IMG/VR virus record: IMGVR_UViG_2563366933_000009
Location: 1-38,108 of that record
Length of the DNA: 38,108 nt
From: a virus
Taxonomy: Duplodnaviria; Heunggongvirae; Uroviricota; Caudoviricetes
Direction: 5' to 3' (one strand)
A program made the translations under genes and the position numbers. The notes under the pieces are model-generated. The model was given only the letters and a program-made list of their open reading frames with translations, did no database searches and had not been told where the DNA came from. Below are positions 253 to 31,788 of this stretch, one piece after another (the stretch's first letter is position 1; every line of letters starts with the position of its first letter).

Positions 253-3198
253 TTAGTGCTTCCCTTCTATTAAGTCTAACCTAGCTTTTATTCTTTCTAT
301 TTCTCTGCGCTGCCATGCTGCCTCGATATAGAATAAGAGATCAGGTCTGACCCCCCATCTAGATCCTGCTGGCGTTATTTCAACGCGCTCAATGATGTCT
401 TCCATTACCATCACTGGATTATCATCCTCATCAACAATGATGCTCCCGTCATTATCAGTCAGCGGCATTTCCCTTTGGCCAGTAATGACGTCATCATATA
501 CTGCGGGATAATCGTCATAGCAAAGAAAGGCATAGCGGCATGTTGTGCTTTCTTCTTCCATGAGTCCGTGAGAAATAAGAACATCACGAAGTTGCTGCGC
601 GATTACACCATGATGTATCCTCGCCCCTTCTTCCCCCTTTATAGCGACAGCGTTCAGCCATTTATAAGCGATATACCTGACGTCACCCCAGGCATCCAGC
701 AATGCTTCGTCAGGAGAGACCGGCTCTGTCTTTAATGTTCCGTCACTGGTAACCACAGGATTGGAGCCAAGATAAACTGTCGAGAACCTGTTTCCCGGAC
801 CACCAAGAGCATTTACATTATCAAGATAAGGTTTAACATCTCCGTTCTCAAAAAGATGTTCGAGTGCGTTATATACCGCGCGACGTGGAGTACTGCTTCC
901 GGAACCATGCAACGTTATCATTGCACCATCTGCTGAAGACGTTGTTTCACCGCCGCTAACGATTAATCTCTGAGCGGTAACATCATCAGACGGTACTTTC
1001 TTCGCAATAATGGCGTAATTACCCTCAAGTTTGACTTCCGCGCGAACTTGTCCTGATGTACCTGCATGGACAGTCAGTGACTGGACGGCAACATCATCTG
1101 TGAAATCAACGGGTACAGGAACCGTCCTCACGCCTGACGTCGACATAAAAGTAGGAAGCGTTCTGTTAGGAGTGGCTCCGTAGACAAAATCCCTTGAAAC
1201 AAATTCTTCCTGTTTAATTTTCACCCTGAAACAATACAAATCAGCCGGGTGACCATCGTGAAAATAAGGATATTTTCTGTTGTTATCCCCTATGCTCCAT
1301 GGGTTTAGAAAGTCTTCCCCACCGAAAATGTAGTACAGCCAGTTGTCTTTGATACAAACTGAACCAACACCAACCGCAGAGTTAACTATTCCGCCCTGAT
1401 AAATCTGATCAGTAACATTAACCCACTCTACATTATCCAGACTCCACTCATTGACGTTAACTCTGGTCATAAATGTTCTTGGATAGTTTCCTGCATAACG
1501 GTTATCAGGTTCTCCTCCTTCCCACTCACCAAATGCGCGCTCACTGCCAAAAATAATCAGCTCATCGCCAACTTTGGCAAAAGGAAGGTTTGAGTGATGA
1601 ACATTATTTGGGAAGCGAAGAGAATTCCATGATGTACCTAAATCAGAGCTTCTGTGCAATGAACTACCGGGTTGAGTACTTAATGTCCCCCTGGTCGTCA
1701 GATACAGAATGCCATCATAATATTTTACACATGGCTCAGATGCATTCGCCTCATATTCTGCAGGTATGCGTCTGCGAACAAAGCTACCAGGAGAACCGAA
1801 AGCATCAGAGAAATAGAGTATCCCAAGCTCGCGTGGACCAATATCACCATTATGGTAGCCAACAGCAAAACTGTTATCGCTAATCGTCGCAAAACTGTGA
1901 ATCTCAGTAACAGGAGTGCTTCCGTCAACAAAAGAAGGAATAGTTCCAAGACTGGTTTTTCTCCATGGTGACGAGTGAAATGATGTACCAAAACTCCAGT
2001 ATCTACCCTCGTTATTCTGATCCACATCCTGGGTATTTTGCGTCGTAACTGTAAAAGTATTTTTATCAATAACAGTAGTCACCGTCATATTCCCGGTAAC
2101 ACCTGTAACACCAGAGTTTGAGAAGTTGACAAAATCACCAGCAAATAATCCGTGATCAGTAATGCGAATATAAGCGACTTGCTGATTTGCTGCTTTCGTT
2201 ATACCACCATAAACGCGAAGGCTGCGACTCATTGGGCGATCCCACAACTCTGCAACCTGCAGTTTATTTCCGCTCACAGTCCGCGTCTCAATTACAGCAA
2301 AAAGGCGATTTCTGACAACCCCCATACTCATGCAGTGATAGTTAACTGTGGGATAGTTTTCATGTAAATCTGTAAGCCATTCCGGCGTTGTCCAGGTCTT
2401 CCCGTCATCTCCTGAGCGAACCCATGCAACATGGAGGTTATTTACACCATGACGGTCTCCAGCCATAAAAGGCGCATAGATGACATTGTCATATACAAAC
2501 GTTTTATCCTGCGTCCAGGCGTTGTACCACGGTGTATCTGTAATTTTAAATAACTCTCCCTGGATAAAATCTTCAGAAGCATAAAAAAGAGGCTGGCCCG
2601 GTATTCTCTCAAATAAAAAACGAGCATTTTTAAATCGACTGACATCTGGAAGAGTTGATACTTTAAAAGTAAGCCCTCGCCCATCTATCTTTTCACCACC
2701 TGTTGCAACAGAAAGTAATTCTGATAGAGCTGATGTATCATCATGAACACCATCACCAATAGCCCCCCAACCTCTTACATCATAACTGTCTCTCCATCTT
2801 GCTATCTGAAGTTTTGGGTATTTATTCGCTCCATCTGGGTCTTCTAATTGCTGCCGTAACTGATCAGGATCATACTTCAGCACATTAGGAAAATAGAACT
2901 GCTGTGTACCATACGCATCATAAACAGCCATAGAATGGCCTTGCACGGTTACGAATTTGGCAATCTGTCCGTTATATACCGGATATCCAGCAGCGTTAAT
3001 GATTATTGGTTGCGAAACAGGAATGTGAGAACCGTCTTCGTTCTCTACATAAACCTGAATCTGGTTTTCAGGATTTACAGGGTCAGTGTCAATTTTACCG
3101 ATATAAATTTTGCCATTGGCTACGGCTTTAAAAGAACGAGCCATAGTGAAGAGTTGCGAAGGCATACTTACTACAACATTGGCTGTAATGTCTGTCAT
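253..3198 (-). CDS. Tailspike protein: P22 gp9-type N-terminal head-binding domain fused to a different beta-helix receptor-binding/depolymerase domain and a C-terminal intramolecular-chaperone-like domain
   Basis: 981-aa ORF; N-terminus [11 protein letters not shown]...[12 protein letters not shown]...VLKYDPDQ matches the P22 tailspike head-binding domain; [14 protein letters not shown] motif typical of pectate-lyase-like tailspikes; Shine-Dalgarno TGGAG upstream. Confidence 0.9.
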
Positions 3199-3614: not shown

Positions 3615-4343
3615 TTACGCCACATTTGAGCCATGTAGCAGGTGTTGTAGTGCTTTAACGCCTTCAGAATTGTAACGGAACGCCTCTACCTGTTTGCTGG
3701 AATGCGCCGATTTATCCAGGAAGAACTTCCCGTACTGCTCAGTTTTGAGGTTGTTTGCGTTAGCAATGCGACCAATCTTGTTGGCCGTTACTCCAAGCTG
3801 CTCTGCAACCTCCCCTGCTGAGTAGTAATGCTCTTCTATTGCCGGAAGAGGTATTGCATTAAAACCAACAAGCGGGTTGATTATACTTGCTGCCGCTGTC
3901 TGCTTTGCCTCAGGCGCAAGATTTGGCATCAGATCGAACAGATTGGTAACAGCTTCAACCGTCATTTTCAATGTTCGCGCTTGACGATACTCAACAAGTC
4001 CACTCGCTGATTTACCGCTTTTAATGTGCGCTTCTTGCATACTTTCAAGTTGGTCTACCAGTGAGCGGCGAACGGCTTTTGACTCGCGAGCGGCAACTCG
4101 CAATGCTTGCTTGATTGACATCTCAATGATAACCATCGAAGTTTTGTTCGCTTTTTGCACTACACTTTTTGTGTAGTGCTCTCCATCCAATTCATCTTCA
4201 ATTTTCTCGATGAATTTGTTATTACGAACCTCCGGCTCACCGCACTGTCTACGAGCCTGATTTACCATCTCAAGCAGGCGCTGGCTGTCAATGGTTTTAT
4301 CCGTGACAACGGATCCGATGTTTGCTACATTCTTAAAAGTCAT
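3615..4343 (-). CDS. Antirepressor-like protein, KilAC-type C-terminal domain
   Basis: Start taken at internal Met (MTFKNVANIG) with AAGGAA Shine-Dalgarno; C-terminal region has the HTH-like motif seen in phage antirepressor KilAC domains; lies in the ant position of an immI-like cluster. Confidence 0.65.
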   Translation of the reverse strand: MTFKNVANIGSVVTDKTIDSQRLLEMVNQARRQCGEPEVRNNKFIEKIEDELDGEHYTKSVVQKANKTSMVIIEMSIKQALRVAARESKAVRRSLVDQLESMQEAHIKSGKSASGLVEYRQARTLKMTVEAVTNLFDLMPNLAPEAKQTAAASIINPLVGFNAIPLPAIEEHYYSAGEVAEQLGVTANKIGRIANANNLKTEQYGKFFLDKSAHSSKQVEAFRYNSEGVKALQHLLHGSNVA

Positions 4344-4412
4344 TAGGCATTCCTTATGTGGTAGTAAGGGTGTGACATAGGCCGCCAGCAGCACACTGGC
4401 GGTTTTCTTTTT
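4338..4412 (+). ncRNA. Putative sar-like antisense RNA covering the translation start of the KilAC antirepressor gene
   Basis: Plus-strand promoter-like GTGACA -17 bp- TACATT at about 4303-4331 inside the antirepressor 5' coding region, and a plus-strand intrinsic terminator about 75 nt downstream; no plus-strand gene is served by this terminator. Confidence 0.3.
4382..4412 (+). terminator. Intrinsic terminator on the plus strand (antisense to the ant genes)
   Basis: Stem CCGCCAG/CTGGCGG with 7-nt loop followed by TTTTCTTTTT. Confidence 0.55.
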
Positions 4413-5440: not shown

Positions 5441-5692
5441 ATGTCAGAAAAAGACGAATCAAATTTCATAGAAAGATTTACGGTTAGAATGCCTGACGGC
5501 ATGCGTAGTGCTATTGCGGAAAGGGCTAAACGAAACGGTCGATCTATGAACTCAGAGATAGTTCAAATTCTTGAGGATGCGTTATCATATGACGTCTCAT
5601 CAGTAGACAAATCATTAGATCTTAAACAAATAAAATCTTTACTTGATAAAATTTCCAACGAGTTACTGGATAGAATCCCAAAAGACACATAA
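5441..5692 (+). CDS. Second Mnt/Arc-family RHH repressor paralog
   Basis: Internal Met start (MSEKDESNFIERFTVRMPDGMRSAIAERAKRNGRSMNSEIVQILEDAL) with RHH signature RxxNGRSMNSEIV; divergent from arc. Confidence 0.6.
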   Translation: MSEKDESNFIERFTVRMPDGMRSAIAERAKRNGRSMNSEIVQILEDALSYDVSSVDKSLDLKQIKSLLDKISNELLDRIPKDT

Positions 5693-5738: not shown

Positions 5739-6059
5739 GTGTATATATCGCTATCTACCATTTTTTTCATCTGCTTAGCTATTTGGCTTTTAAGAATATG
5801 GCAGGATTGCTCTGTCAGCCATGCTGCTGCGGTGAGAAATAAAAACGCCCTCATAAAAGAAGCTGAAAACGTTGTTTTATCAATGGATCACCTTTCATGG
5901 ACCGAGATGACTACAGGGCAACAAGAGGTTTATGAGTGTGCGATTGAGCGGTTAAGGCTGCTTAAATCGTACAAAAAGAACCACGCACCCGACTCATTCC
6001 CATTCCTGAAAGAATGGCCGAGATGGTATGACCCGAGAAAAGCAACCATCAACCGCTAA
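5739..6059 (+). CDS. Small single-pass membrane protein, paralog of the cI-linked ORF at 30739-31053; function unknown
   Basis: GTG start 6 nt after AAGGAGG; hydrophobic N-terminus ISLSTIFFICLAIWLL; shares a YECAIERL-centred region and a W-P motif with the ORF at 30739-31053. Confidence 0.6.
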   Translation: MYISLSTIFFICLAIWLLRIWQDCSVSHAAAVRNKNALIKEAENVVLSMDHLSWTEMTTGQQEVYECAIERLRLLKSYKKNHAPDSFPFLKEWPRWYDPRKATINR

Positions 6060-6067
6060 CCAACTTT

Positions 6068-8074
6068 TTACTGCCGGGCTTTCTCACTTGAAGCCTGAAT
6101 TAGAGGTGTAAGAGTTTCAGATACCCGTCTGATCGCTCTATCATAAGCAGTACTTCCTTTTGGTGTGTTTGCTAACTTTAGTAATGCGTTCCTCATCGCG
6201 CGTGACTCATAGCCCCTGCCAGCCATACCGATACCAGCTCCAACTGCCGCAACTTTTGCAAACATTGGATTTGTAACAGACGCAAGAGCTGTTATCAGCG
6301 CTGCTGGACCAGCTACCATTTGCCCTGTTAGTGGGCTTGCGGCAGCAGTAGCTGCCTGTCTAGTGGAATCAAGATATTTCATTATCCCATCAAGCTGTTT
6401 CCCATGCTCTCCTCTGAAGAACGTCTCAGCCTGCTTCCGATTCCTTTTCATTTCATTAATAAACTTCTCAACGCTAAGCTTTCCTGAATCGCTTGTCGCC
6501 TTATCCATTGCACGCTGAACAAGTGCTGCTCTAGCATTTTGACGCCCACTATCATCAAGCAATCGATAAAGTTGCGCCCTTTCCGCTGGGCTTTGGCTGA
6601 ATACTAGTTTAGTGACATCTTCTGGCGTTGTTTTACCACTCTGAATAGCTTTTTGGACACGTGTATTGCTCATCATGTCGTTGAACTTTGCCCAAGAACG
6701 ATCAACACGCGACATGTTTTGCGCTTCCTTCGCACCTAGTTTTGCGCCAACCGCTTTTTTCATGTCTGTTGTGTATGCGTTATAAACAGACTGCGCAGCT
6801 TTCTCCAGCGTATCTCTATCGACCTCGTCAGGTGCTGCCATAAAGCGCTTACGTAAGTTTGTACGGTTTTCTCTAGCTAATTGCAGGTTATTTGGACCGC
6901 TGGTGATGTCATTTCTAAACTGTTGAAGGACAGAAACAGCTGAGCGGTCTTGCGATACTCCTGGGCGAGTTAACTTGGAAATCTGCTCATCAATTGCTTT
7001 CACTGTTCCAGTGATGTCAACAGGAGTATCCCCCATCAAACTGATGATCCTGTCGTACCGCTTGCCAGCAGCCTGAATAAATTGCTGCTGACCACGAGTA
7101 GCTGATTGGTAAAGTTGTGCGTCAGATATTCCACCAACATTATCGCTAAATGTTCTAACTAAATCTTCCCTGGCCTTTTGCTGTGCATTTCTTATCCCAC
7201 CTGTTCCGGCTATTGGGATTCGCTCAGCCATAGCTCGTGCTTGCTTACCAATATTTGTTCCCGGTTCCACAAGATCTGTTGTCATCAGTGGCAAGTTGTT
7301 CTGCTTGGCAAAGTCAATCTGAGCTTGTTTTTCAGGAGCTATCTTACCCATAGCAGAACGAGACACTGCGCTTGCGGTGTTTTCTACACCCTTCAGTACC
7401 CCACCAAGACCAGCAGAAATTGCAGTTTGAACTGGATTAACATTCTCACCGCCAGCGATCTTAGTGGCCCCCTGTAAAGCTAAATCAGTAGCGCCTGATT
7501 TTAGTGTTGCACCTACAACAGACGCAGCTCTACCTGCTGGAGTGAATGCAAGAGCATTTGCCAAGAATGACGTTATATCCTGCGGTGACAAACCAGGCTT
7601 GTTAAGTGCATATTCCCCTGAAGGAAGGGTGACTATGGAATTTCCCTTCTCATCCTTCCGGATTTTCCCGCCAATACTTTGCAGTATTTTCTCCTGTGAA
7701 GCGTCGGAACCAAATAGCTGCCCCAATCCAGCACGCAGCGCATCAGTGCTTAAGCTATTAAGCTCTGGAGCAGACCCAACATTTTGCAGTCTCTCCATTT
7801 CTGGTGTCATTCGGCTTTCACCGGTAACGGCATCGCGCATTGCAGCACCTAAAACAGCCCCTTGCTCAGCAGAGCGATCTAGTCCTTCCTTCTGCTGAGT
7901 GGCAAGCTGTGCATATCCTGATGCAAGTGAGTTGTCTGCTGGCGATTGCTGAACACCTTGTTGTGTTGGTGCTGACTGACCAGCAAAATACTCATCAATG
8001 GCGGTGCCAATATCTTCGGTGCTCGTACCATCAGGGAAGGTAAATGTCTTACCGTTTGCAGTAACTTTCATCAT
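6068..8074 (-). CDS. Ejection (injection) protein, P22 gp16-like
   Basis: 668-aa ORF at the gp16 position in a P22-type gene order; Gly/Ala-rich composition; overlaps the upstream gene stop. Confidence 0.8.
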
Positions 8075-29982: not shown

Positions 29983-30036
29983 TTACCTGTAGGTAAAAAG
30001 CAAATCAATACCCATAGGTTATTTACCGGCAGGTAA
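29983..30036. promoter_or_regulatory. OR operator region with divergent PR/PRM
   Basis: Two 14-bp dyad sites TTACCTGTAGGTAA and TTACCGGCAGGTAA in the 108-bp cro/cI intergenic region. Confidence 0.6.
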
Positions 30037-30055
30037 TCAAAGATAGAATTAAATC

Positions 30056-30742
30056 ATGGATAAATACGAACAAAGACGACTAAGGCTGATAGAGATAAGA
30101 GACCGATTCTGTAATGGAAAGGCCTCAGAGTTGGCTCGTCGAATAGAAAGGGAACCATCATACGTTTCCAGAATGCTGTATCCGGAAGGAAAAAGCGGAA
30201 AAAAACGCATTGCTGACGATATGATGGAGCTAATTGAAAAATCTTTTAATCTCCCACGCGGATGGATGGACATGCTTGCAGATGGTAAAGCTGGAGCTAC
30301 GGACCATCTTGAGTTTGCGGGTAACGTTCGTGCGGGTTTTGTTCCGGTAATTGGTGAAGCCGTTTTGGGAGTTGATGGCTCAGTGGATATGATTGAATTC
30401 AGATCCGGTTGGTTAAGCATCTACAGCGGCGATAAAGATGCTTACGGTCTGAAGGTTAAGGGTGACAGCATGTGGCCAAGGATTCAGTCAGGAGAATATG
30501 TTGTTATTGAACCAAATACGCCAGTACATCCAGGTGATGAAGTCTTTGTAAGGACCAAAGACGGTCACAACATGATAAAGATCATGAACAAAACAAGAGA
30601 CGGTGATTATCAGTTTAGTAGCATAAACAGTGATCACCGCCCAATCACTCTTCCTGTTGAAGAAGTTGATAAAATGCATTTTGTTTCAGCTATTGTGAAA
30701 CACACCAGGTACGTAGACCAGGACGATCTGCCAAAAGTTTGA
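30056..30742 (+). CDS. cI: CI-like prophage repressor (HTH plus S24 LexA-like autopeptidase domain)
   Basis: 228 aa; C-terminal GDSMWPRI...GEYVVIEP...GDEVFVR...KIM signature of S24 peptidase-type repressors. Confidence 0.9.
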   Translation: MDKYEQRRLRLIEIRDRFCNGKASELARRIEREPSYVSRMLYPEGKSGKKRIADDMMELIEKSFNLPRGWMDMLADGKAGATDHLEFAGNVRAGFVPVIGEAVLGVDGSVDMIEFRSGWLSIYSGDKDAYGLKVKGDSMWPRIQSGEYVVIEPNTPVHPGDEVFVRTKDGHNMIKIMNKTRDGDYQFSSINSDHRPITLPVEEVDKMHFVSAIVKHTRYVDQDDLPKV

Positions 30743-31053
30743 GGATAAAGCAGCAAATGTTTATACCCGGCATAGTAGTCGCTGTTGTAATCATCTGCTT
30801 CATATGGGCAAAGTTATCTCCTGTAAGCTCTAAGCATACAGCTGAACTCATGAGGAAGAAGCATCTTATACATGAGGCAGAATCGATAATTAAAAAGTTC
30901 AAAGGCATGTCATACGACGACATGTCATCAGAGCAGATTGCTATGTATAAATGCGCCATTGAGCGCCTTGACTACTTAAACGGACTCAAACCCAAACACA
31001 CCCCAGTAGAATCAAAATTGCCGCAATGGCCAAGCAATCCAAATAGCTTCTGA
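30739..31053 (+). CDS. Small single-pass membrane protein co-transcribed with cI (Rex-position gene), paralog of 5739-6059; function unknown
   Basis: ATGA-type overlap with the cI stop; hydrophobic N-terminus IPGIVVAVVIICFIWA; YKCAIERL motif shared with 5739-6059; followed by an intrinsic terminator. Confidence 0.6.
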   Translation: MRIKQQMFIPGIVVAVVIICFIWAKLSPVSSKHTAELMRKKHLIHEAESIIKKFKGMSYDDMSSEQIAMYKCAIERLDYLNGLKPKHTPVESKLPQWPSNPNSF

Positions 31054-31064
31054 CATCTCCTTTC

Positions 31065-31088
31065 AGCCCGCAAAGCGGGCTTTTTTAT
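31065..31088 (+). terminator. Intrinsic terminator ending the cI operon
   Basis: Stem AGCCCGC/GCGGGCT with AAA loop followed by TTTTTTAT. Confidence 0.6.
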
Positions 31089-31106: not shown

Positions 31107-31191
31107 TTACCTGAAAATTCAATCAGGTAAACTCTCACATCAATTTTATTTACCTACAGGTATAGACAGAGGTTTTACCTGTAGGTATATT
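31107..31191. promoter_or_regulatory. OL operator region and PL-like promoter
   Basis: Dyad sites TTACCTGA..TCAGGTAA, TTACCTACAGGTA and TTACCTGTAGGTA of the same family as OR; -35 TAGACA, 17-bp spacer, -10 TATATT reading toward N. Confidence 0.55.
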
Positions 31192-31461: not shown

Positions 31462-31788
31462 ATGGATGCACAAACACGCCGCCGCGAACGTCGCGCAGAG
31501 AAACAGGCTCAATGGAAAGCAGCAAATCCCCTGTTGGTTGGGGTAAGCGCAAAACCAGTTAACCGCCCTATTCTCTCGCTGAATCGCAAACCGAAATCAC
31601 GAGTAGAAAGCGCACTGAATCCGATAGACCTTACGGTGCTGGCTGAATACCACGAACAGATTGAAAGCAACCTGCAGCGTATTGAGCGCAAGAATCAGCG
31701 CACATGGTACAGCAAGCCACGCAGTGAAATGGGTGTGACTTGTGTTGGTCGCCAGAAAATGAAATTAGGCAGCAAACCACTTATTTGA
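31462..31788 (+). CDS. N: Antitermination protein N (lambda-type)
   Basis: MDAQTRRRERRAEKQAQWKAANPLLVGVSAKPVNRPILSLNRKPKSRVESALNPIDLTVLAEY... is near-identical to lambda N. Confidence 0.95.
   Translation: MDAQTRRRERRAEKQAQWKAANPLLVGVSAKPVNRPILSLNRKPKSRVESALNPIDLTVLAEYHEQIESNLQRIERKNQRTWYSKPRSEMGVTCVGRQKMKLGSKPLI

Follow-up and report, generated by a model that had tools for sequence, protein, structure and literature searches.

A rapidly evolving small gene behind the cI repressor of a P22-like prophage and its family as candidates for phage exclusion

Accessory genes located behind a prophage repressor are well established as candidate defence genes, and the interval between cI and N is a hotspot that holds rexAB and bstA, both of which are abortive-infection systems. 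A second accessory position is found between gene 16 and the tailspike on the P22 map, where sieA is located. SieA, which is an entry-block gene product rather than an abortive-infection factor, has 164 residues, occurs as three types (A-C), is predicted to have several transmembrane helices, and carries the motif FxRYPxEAxxFNK, which is predicted to be cytoplasmic. HK97 gp15, in turn, is a small (62 aa) exclusion protein of the inner membrane, where it blocks the entry of genomes; its expression is from the prophage. Here we describe a 98-codon open reading frame (ORF) directly behind the cI gene in a stretch of 38,108 nucleotides (IMG/VR record IMGVR_UViG_2563366933_000009, positions 1 to 38,108), hereafter the window, which is a P22-like Escherichia coli prophage. 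A paralog of this ORF occupies the sieA slot of the same prophage. A preliminary description of the window had singled out the ORF as a candidate exclusion or abortive-infection gene expressed in lysogens.

Comparison with the described systems yields partial likenesses. As in the case of lambda rexA-rexB, the ORF lies inside the immunity region, appears to be distal in the repressor transcript, and is followed by a terminator before OL/PL, so that the earlier suggestion that it takes the position of rexAB is borne out by its placement between OR and OL with cI upstream and the terminator downstream. The ORF, however, encodes one 98-residue single-pass protein whereas rexAB is a two-gene system that combines a cytoplasmic sensor with a polytopic membrane protein. 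RexB crosses the membrane several times and depends on RexA. Only one ORF, with one hydrophobic helix, is present in the interval from cI to the terminator, in contrast to the RexA/RexB pair, and, having neither a Pfam match at E <= 0.1 nor a PADLOC hit at E <= 1, the ORF is not a member of the RexA or RexB families. BstA of the Salmonella prophage BTP1 is also encoded directly downstream of a repressor, presumably shares its promoter, and has its own terminator after it, but it acts at phage DNA replication sites and has a self-immunity DNA element. BstA is roughly three times longer than the 98-aa product, and no similarity to BstA was found in a PADLOC scan of the ORF or a Pfam scan of the family.

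The likeness to P22 SieA concerns the paralog, which sits in the sieA slot downstream of mnt and converges on gene 16; moreover, SieA resides in the inner membrane, and its conserved part is predicted to be cytoplasmic, as is predicted for the ORF family. Homology to SieA was nevertheless rejected (hhalign probability 0.2%), and neither the SieA motif nor a tblastn hit to SieA was found in the window or in loci L001-L057. In the family as in HK97 gp15, a hydrophobic anchor that no positive charge precedes forms the N-terminus, the tail is helical and charged, and the gene has an intrinsic terminator immediately behind it. The HK97 protein differs in being shorter, in being encoded by a stand-alone moron in the tail operon, and in its derivation from the host YebO family, and homology to gp15 or YebO was likewise rejected (hhalign probability 1.2% against a 14-sequence family alignment). 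What is new here is the family, phrog_10450, together with its two-slot distribution, in which a layout like that of lambda cI-rex would be combined with an action perhaps like that of SieA and HK97 gp15, while sequence and fold match none of them.

A fast-evolving gene of a probable repressor operon

The genes for cro (76 aa), cI (228 aa; 189 aa as called in two loci) and the ORF (98 aa) form a trio that is constant in all ten distinct mosaic contexts, around which the replication genes, the N alleles, and the content of the PL operon vary. In complete E. coli genomes the ORF was found 52 times, and in each of these genomes the entire cro-cI-ORF-N query region was matched at >= 80% coverage. 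The immunity region of the window is 98.4% identical at the DNA level to that of coliphage mEp043, a lambda-like siphovirus in which a tape measure and lambda-type tail genes are present, whereas the portal, coat, gp7 and gp20 encoded by the window are of P22 type; one and the same repressor module therefore moves between phages with different virions. The arrangement extends to diverged relatives. Two proteins with 42% identity to the ORF product (P0023 and P0024) are each encoded by the gene next to a 231-aa S24 repressor and 3-4 nt downstream of it; in the relatives L060 and L061 the cI and ORF gene calls are 3-4 nt apart. That repressor is 84-85% identical to the window cI, and the accompanying cro is 88-92% identical. 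Estimates of dN for the same three loci are 0.48-0.61 for the small ORF and 0.07-0.10 for cI and cro, with synonymous sites being saturated in all three genes. Because of this contrast in dN and the synteny kept in the diverged loci, the ORF has been retained at a fixed position, its protein diverging at five to six times the rate of the neighbouring cI and cro.

The preliminary description gave the ORF as about 104 codons overlapping the cI stop. This is correct for the mechanical reading frame (TTG at 30739 to 31053, 104 aa), in which the TTG overlaps the stop, but not for the likely coding sequence, which probably begins with the ATG at 30757, 14 nt after the cI stop, and specifies 98 residues. 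We favour this start because the phrog_10450 profile (98 positions) aligns from 1-98 with ORF residues 1-98 (E 7.8e-55), full-length homologues begin at the equivalent M-[FY]-I, and only ATG or GTG is used as the start codon across ten DNA alleles. The TTG at 30739 was set aside, having no upstream Shine-Dalgarno sequence and extending the protein past the N-termini of the family. The profile alignment also modifies the earlier statement that the protein matches no family, which is true of families with an assigned function, since the ORF product is a full-length member of phrog_10450, to which no function is assigned. The conserved core YKCAIERL pointed out previously recurs in the paralog as YECAIERL, the shared form being YxCAIERL.

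Among alleles from related loci, variable sites fall at third codon positions in 11 of 18 cases for the ORF (type A) and in 15 of 19 for the paralog (type B), and several of the replacements are conservative (K/R, S/T, D/E, I/V/L). This third-position variation, the full-length family match, the paralog, and the kept synteny show that the reading frame at 30757-31053 is genuinely a gene. Its base composition (41.8% G+C, compared with 47.1% for the window and 43.4% for cI) is unremarkable. The type A protein was called a hypothetical protein by the GenBank submitters of mEp043, and type B is annotated in the same way in RefSeq E. coli genomes, but the NCBI pipeline places no RefSeq feature over the type A ORF in 50 of the 52 complete genomes that carry it, so that surveys of prophage cargo systematically overlook type A. 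We found no study of the small ORF in the literature on mEp043 and other mEp phages.

Transcription of cI and of the PL operon runs along the plus strand, the late genes and the PR operon being on the minus strand. The features of the immunity region are as follows.

29983-29996, 30009-30021 and 30023-30036: OR operator cluster, TTACC-N4-GGTA palindromes between cro and cI
30022-30049, plus strand: PRM-like promoter, TTTACC-16-TAGAAT, a consensus match only (9/12)
30056-30742, plus strand: cI-type repressor of mEp043 immunity type, 228 aa, containing a self-cleavage domain of the S24 (LexA-like) kind
30741-30745, plus strand: GAGGA ribosome-binding site of the small ORF, overlapping the cI stop (TGA 30740-30742) and 11 nt before the ATG at 30757
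30757-31053, plus strand: small ORF (type A), 98 aa, phrog_10450 member with a membrane anchor at about residues 1-19 followed by a predicted cytoplasmic helical hairpin
31065-31088, plus strand: intrinsic terminator closing the cI-ORF unit, counterpart of lambda timm
31107-31188, no strand assigned: OL region, consisting of a palindrome (31107-31130) and operators (31150-31163 and 31175-31188)
31163-31191, plus strand: PL-like promoter directed at N
31462-31788, plus strand: N gene (PF11438, E 1.5e-26)

The identity of the upstream gene as a cI repressor, as originally proposed, is confirmed by a Peptidase_S24 match (PF00717, E 1.4e-17), a match to phrog_4, and the annotation of its mEp043 counterpart as cI. 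The window contains 19 matches to TTACC-N4-GGTA as against 3.4 expected, and these are clustered only at OR (29983-30036) and OL (31150-31188), which enclose cI and the small ORF. The -10 hexamer of the PRM-like site ends 7 nt 5' of the cI ATG (30056), and the cI mRNA would therefore be leaderless, as in lambda; we infer from its sequence and position that the site at 30022-30049 is a working promoter. A promoter-like site inside cI (30365-30393) was set aside, the scan having given 4 sites when 3.5 are expected in shuffled sequence. As the preliminary description had noted, an intrinsic terminator directly follows the small ORF: a stem-loop (31065-31081) with a 7 bp stem containing 6 G-C pairs, followed by a T-run, begins 11 nt past the stop codon, and its folding energy (-12.6 kcal/mol, z -2.83) is better than that of all 200 shuffles. 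A hairpin and T-run are likewise found after the ORF in the relative L061. The earlier proposal of co-transcription is upheld, since a search of the 14 nt that separate the ORF from cI revealed nothing resembling a terminator. This arrangement, together with the kept synteny, suggests that the ORF is transcribed with cI and hence made in lysogens.

The palindrome TTACCTG-N10-CAGGTAA (31107-31130), between the terminator and the OL operators, has operator-like half-sites at an unusual spacing, and the diverged relative L060 has an almost identical palindrome behind its ORF. Possible roles of this element are that of a third OL site and that of a terminator acting in both directions.

The single N-terminal transmembrane helix of the preliminary description is also supported, in that the N-terminal stretch has a mean Kyte-Doolittle hydropathy of 2.4-2.5 over 19 residues and in every one of the 14 aligned members the start of the hydrophobic helix falls at residues 1-3. 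None of the 14 has a lysine or arginine on the N-terminal side of the helix outside the scored hydrophobic window, and all have one to four such residues within 15 residues on its C-terminal side. According to the positive-inside rule, the protein is therefore predicted to have an N-out/C-in anchor with the remainder in the cytoplasm. The AlphaFold2 model, which was computed from a nine-sequence alignment (pLDDT 83.6), has a continuous helix (5-47), a second helix (58-76) that packs back on it, and an ordered tail. Residues K34, I38, E40, A41, A67, L71, W91 and P92 are invariant. A metal site composed of H27, C66 and H81 was considered and set aside, these residues not being invariant across the wider family.

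Scans of both paralogs against Pfam, NCBIfam and PADLOC gave no informative match, and the 14 family members gave no consistent Pfam hits at E <= 1; in PHROGs, all 14 matched phrog_10450 and nothing else. A profile search of PDB sequences had designed helical filaments as its best match (E 0.61), and comparison of folds with PDB and BFVD returned no informative relative of the ORF product. A match to a housekeeping or phage morphogenesis family, against which the preliminary description had set its own proposal, was thus not seen in Pfam, NCBIfam, PADLOC, PDB or BFVD.

A family restricted to two accessory slots

We searched 1.84 billion representative proteins exhaustively using HMMER and a profile of the two paralogs, obtaining 15 hits at E <= 0.001, of which about 13 are related clusters (12 with E <= 1e-5). 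The clusters are of 55-150 aa, with complete members having about 97-114 residues, and originate from E. coli, Shigella flexneri and Salmonella enterica, all source names being "hypothetical protein". The other two hits, the long proteins P0028 (676 aa, E 1e-8) and P0031 (4419 aa, E 7.5e-5), were not counted as relatives since only short repeated stretches were matched, which are probably coiled-coil or compositional similarities. In a collection of phage genomes the family is found only in mEp043, N7 and HZ41, and a scan of 100,044 species-representative genomes with degenerate peptide patterns, which detects close relatives only, gave one locus, in Escherichia sp. E1V33. A word-indexed protein search with the ORF returned near-identical sequences only. 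The exact 98-aa type A protein is indexed in 702 blocks of an assembly collection, and one type B sequence is present on about 1000 contigs. Every context with enough flanking DNA is a prophage, intact or remnant, of lambdoid or P22-like type, and nearly all relatives with visible context are located either directly after cI or, in P22-like phages, at the final position ahead of gene 16. The members are confined to two accessory slots in temperate phages of enterobacteria, namely the cI-to-OL interval that houses rexAB and bstA and the gene 16-to-tailspike interval that houses sieA.

The second slot is occupied in the window by the paralog, the existence of which had been noticed in the preliminary description. 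Type A and the paralog are 37% identical over 70 aa (tblastn E 2.5e-11), and the latter is found in the following setting.

5441-5692, plus strand: Mnt-like ribbon-helix-helix repressor of immI (PF03869 Arc, E 2.4e-17), 46 nt from the paralog
5739-6059, plus strand: paralog (type B) of 106 aa with a GTG start preceded by AAGGAGG, phrog_10450 E 5.3e-51
6068-8074, minus strand: equivalent of the ejection-protein gene 16, 667 aa, on which the paralog converges

No terminator-like site was found between 5100 and 6150, which spans the gap between mnt and the paralog. The type B relatives (in the window, in N7 as ORF14, and in L062, L064 and L066/L067) are each the last plus-strand gene before gene 16. 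The paralog and its diverged relatives lie between gene 16 and the tailspike, in contrast to the ORF at 30757-31053. In four of these five contexts (the window, N7, L064 and L066) mnt is found upstream of type B in the same orientation; the order elsewhere can be mnt, a 96-aa gene, a 153-aa gene and type B, or mnt, a Rap1a gene and type B. The upstream neighbour differs among loci, with at least seven kinds observed, of which some are encoded on the other strand; immI genes are missing altogether from one locus, and homology among type B loci starts only about 20-45 nt 5' of the start codon. Because the upstream neighbours vary in this way, the constant feature is the slot by gene 16 and not mnt.

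The 55 chromosomes and plasmids listed with full-length type B include none of the 52 complete E. coli chromosomes that carry type A, and the two lists of IMG/VR contigs have no member in common. The combination of both types seen in the window therefore appears to be an uncommon mosaic and not a fixed two-gene design.

Several features of the type B surroundings may be recorded. The gene 16 equivalent of the window (6068-8074) has no Pfam hit at E <= 0.001 while the gene 16 proteins beside diverged type B relatives match PF26808, a difference that is consistent with the reported extreme diversity of gp16. In L066 (4641-4988) and L067 (971-1318), which represent a diverged P22-like prophage, the gene between mnt and the family member matches the Rap1a family of type VI secretion immunity proteins, which suggests that the mnt operon may carry anti-competitor cargo. 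A HicA-like ORF of 65 aa and a 217-aa partner ORF are located on the opposite strand between mnt and type B in L050 (1468-2322, minus strand); the pair, which was identified by eye only, looks like a toxin-antitoxin system inserted in the same variable slot. Finally, N7 (L003 3008-3848) and L064 (4237-4989) each have two further small ORFs between mnt and type B. The 170-aa ORF of N7 has a hydrophobic stretch in the middle of the protein, and the 153-aa ORF of L064 has one at its C-terminus, and these genes may be additional membrane cargo expressed in lysogens or partners of type B.

Candidate functions of the family

We tentatively propose, with somewhat less than even confidence, that the ORF protects the lysogen from other phages at the inner membrane, probably by interfering with the delivery of DNA from a superinfecting phage. 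According to this proposal, cI and the ORF would be transcribed from PRM, and also from PRE while lysogeny is being established, with the ORF being translated from its own GAGGA site at the cI stop. The unit would end at the terminator (31065-31088), and the protein would be made continuously in lysogens. The 98-aa product would be a single-pass inner-membrane protein with a helical-hairpin domain of about 75 residues facing the cytoplasm, and it would block the DNA-delivery step, as do the unrelated small membrane proteins SieA and HK97 gp15. We read the ORF as a candidate anti-phage factor because both slots hold proven exclusion or abortive-infection genes, small membrane exclusion proteins have precedent, and the protein evolves fast, as is expected of a factor in conflict with other phages. 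A broader reading, which we consider possible but hold with limited confidence, is that phrog_10450 is a self-contained and so far unrecognised family of exclusion proteins, each crossing the inner membrane once and acting on DNA delivery from its cytoplasmic side, and that this family has colonised both slots. The divergence of its members would then reflect an arms race with ejection or tail-tip proteins, and the prophage in the window, unusual in having a copy in either slot, would exclude two different sets of phages.

Several considerations weigh against these proposals. Exclusion activity is suggested for the family by position, membrane anchoring and fast evolution only, expression in lysogens is deduced from the gene layout, and the predicted topology comes from the positive-inside rule alone. 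No similarity to known exclusion or defence proteins was detected (no PADLOC match at E <= 1; hhalign probabilities of 0.2% for SieA and 1.2% for HK97 gp15), and all database names given to members are "hypothetical protein". Moreover, slots expressed in lysogens also hold non-exclusion cargo, and one relative shares its mnt operon with the Rap1a-type type VI immunity protein.

This last point underlies the main rival to phage exclusion, which is that the ORF is lysogenic-conversion cargo unrelated to phages, conferring immunity to a membrane-targeting bacteriocin or secretion toxin, or modulating a host inner-membrane protein or protease so as to raise fitness. We regard this explanation as somewhat unlikely; in its favour, a gene for type VI immunity can be part of these operons: the relative P0025 is encoded in an mnt operon beside a Rap1a-family member, and another, P0022, is found in a decayed prophage beside Hcp and Tlde1-domain genes. 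In addition, many moron functions other than phage exclusion have been described. On the other hand, the exhaustive search found the family (about 13 clusters) to be essentially absent outside phage-derived DNA, all contexts with sufficient flanking sequence are lambdoid or P22-like prophages or remnants, and both conserved positions host genes for which phage exclusion has been proven experimentally.

An abortive-infection effector, which would be anchored and inert in the lysogen and would, on infection, damage or depolarise the membrane so that the cell dies before progeny are released, in the manner of RexB or other single-protein membrane systems, seems unlikely. Such an effector would be at home in the slot of rexAB and bstA, the predicted membrane anchoring and the fast evolution of the ORF product would suit it, and a membrane-anchored protein of a Staphylococcus prophage is reported to cause abortive infection (PMC10127798). 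The ORF product nevertheless has a single transmembrane helix, no partner gene, and no Pfam or PADLOC match, and the second position of the family is the slot of an entry-block gene, sieA. We therefore favour an entry block over abortive infection on account of the single-pass architecture, the lack of a partner gene, and the sister clade in the sieA slot.

Less probable again is that the ORF is a regulatory accessory of the phage itself, a membrane-tethered factor that tunes the maintenance or induction of lysogeny by, for example, binding a regulator or protease so as to sequester or stabilise it. The presence of copies in both immC (with cI) and immI (with mnt) would then be accounted for, and the idea accords with the strict association of type A with one cI type and with the presence of type B after mnt, on the same strand, in the window, N7, L064 and L066. 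Type B, however, is bound to the end of gene 16 and not to mnt, given its variety of upstream neighbours (at least seven) and the locus that lacks immI genes, and the five- to sixfold faster divergence of the ORF compared with cI and cro would be unusual for a partner of those regulators. Moreover, the family is not a core part of the lysogeny circuit, because mEp043, N7 and HZ41 are the only phage records searched in which it occurs. Finally, that the ORF is not a functional gene, being a chance reading frame or decaying remnant between cI and OL, would explain its omission from the NCBI annotation (no RefSeq feature in 50 of 52 genomes) but is very improbable in view of the full-length family match and the paralog, the synteny kept despite saturated synonymous sites, the third-position variation with preserved start codon, and the confident AlphaFold2 model.

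If the proposal of phage exclusion is correct, phrog_10450 would be a new protein family of prophage-encoded exclusion factors having only about 100 residues, in a family that is common in prophages of clinical E. coli, Shigella and Salmonella. Its restriction to the rex and sieA slots makes an unusually clean case of guilt by association, and the natural pair of paralogs in one prophage means that the specificity of each copy can be compared directly.

The host prophage and its tailspike

The tailspike gene of the window is as follows.

253-3198, minus strand: tailspike, in which a P22 head-binding domain is fused to a complete endosialidase (K1 capsule) module and a chaperone domain

Because its tailspike carries an endosialidase module, the prophage is probably specific for K1-capsulated E. 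coli, like CUS-3, and exclusion determinants encoded on it would therefore bear on phage therapy directed against K1 strains. Between the tailspike and an Ant-like gene there is a 258-aa ORF (3615-4394, minus strand) without a Pfam match, which may be a second cargo gene of the antirepressor region.

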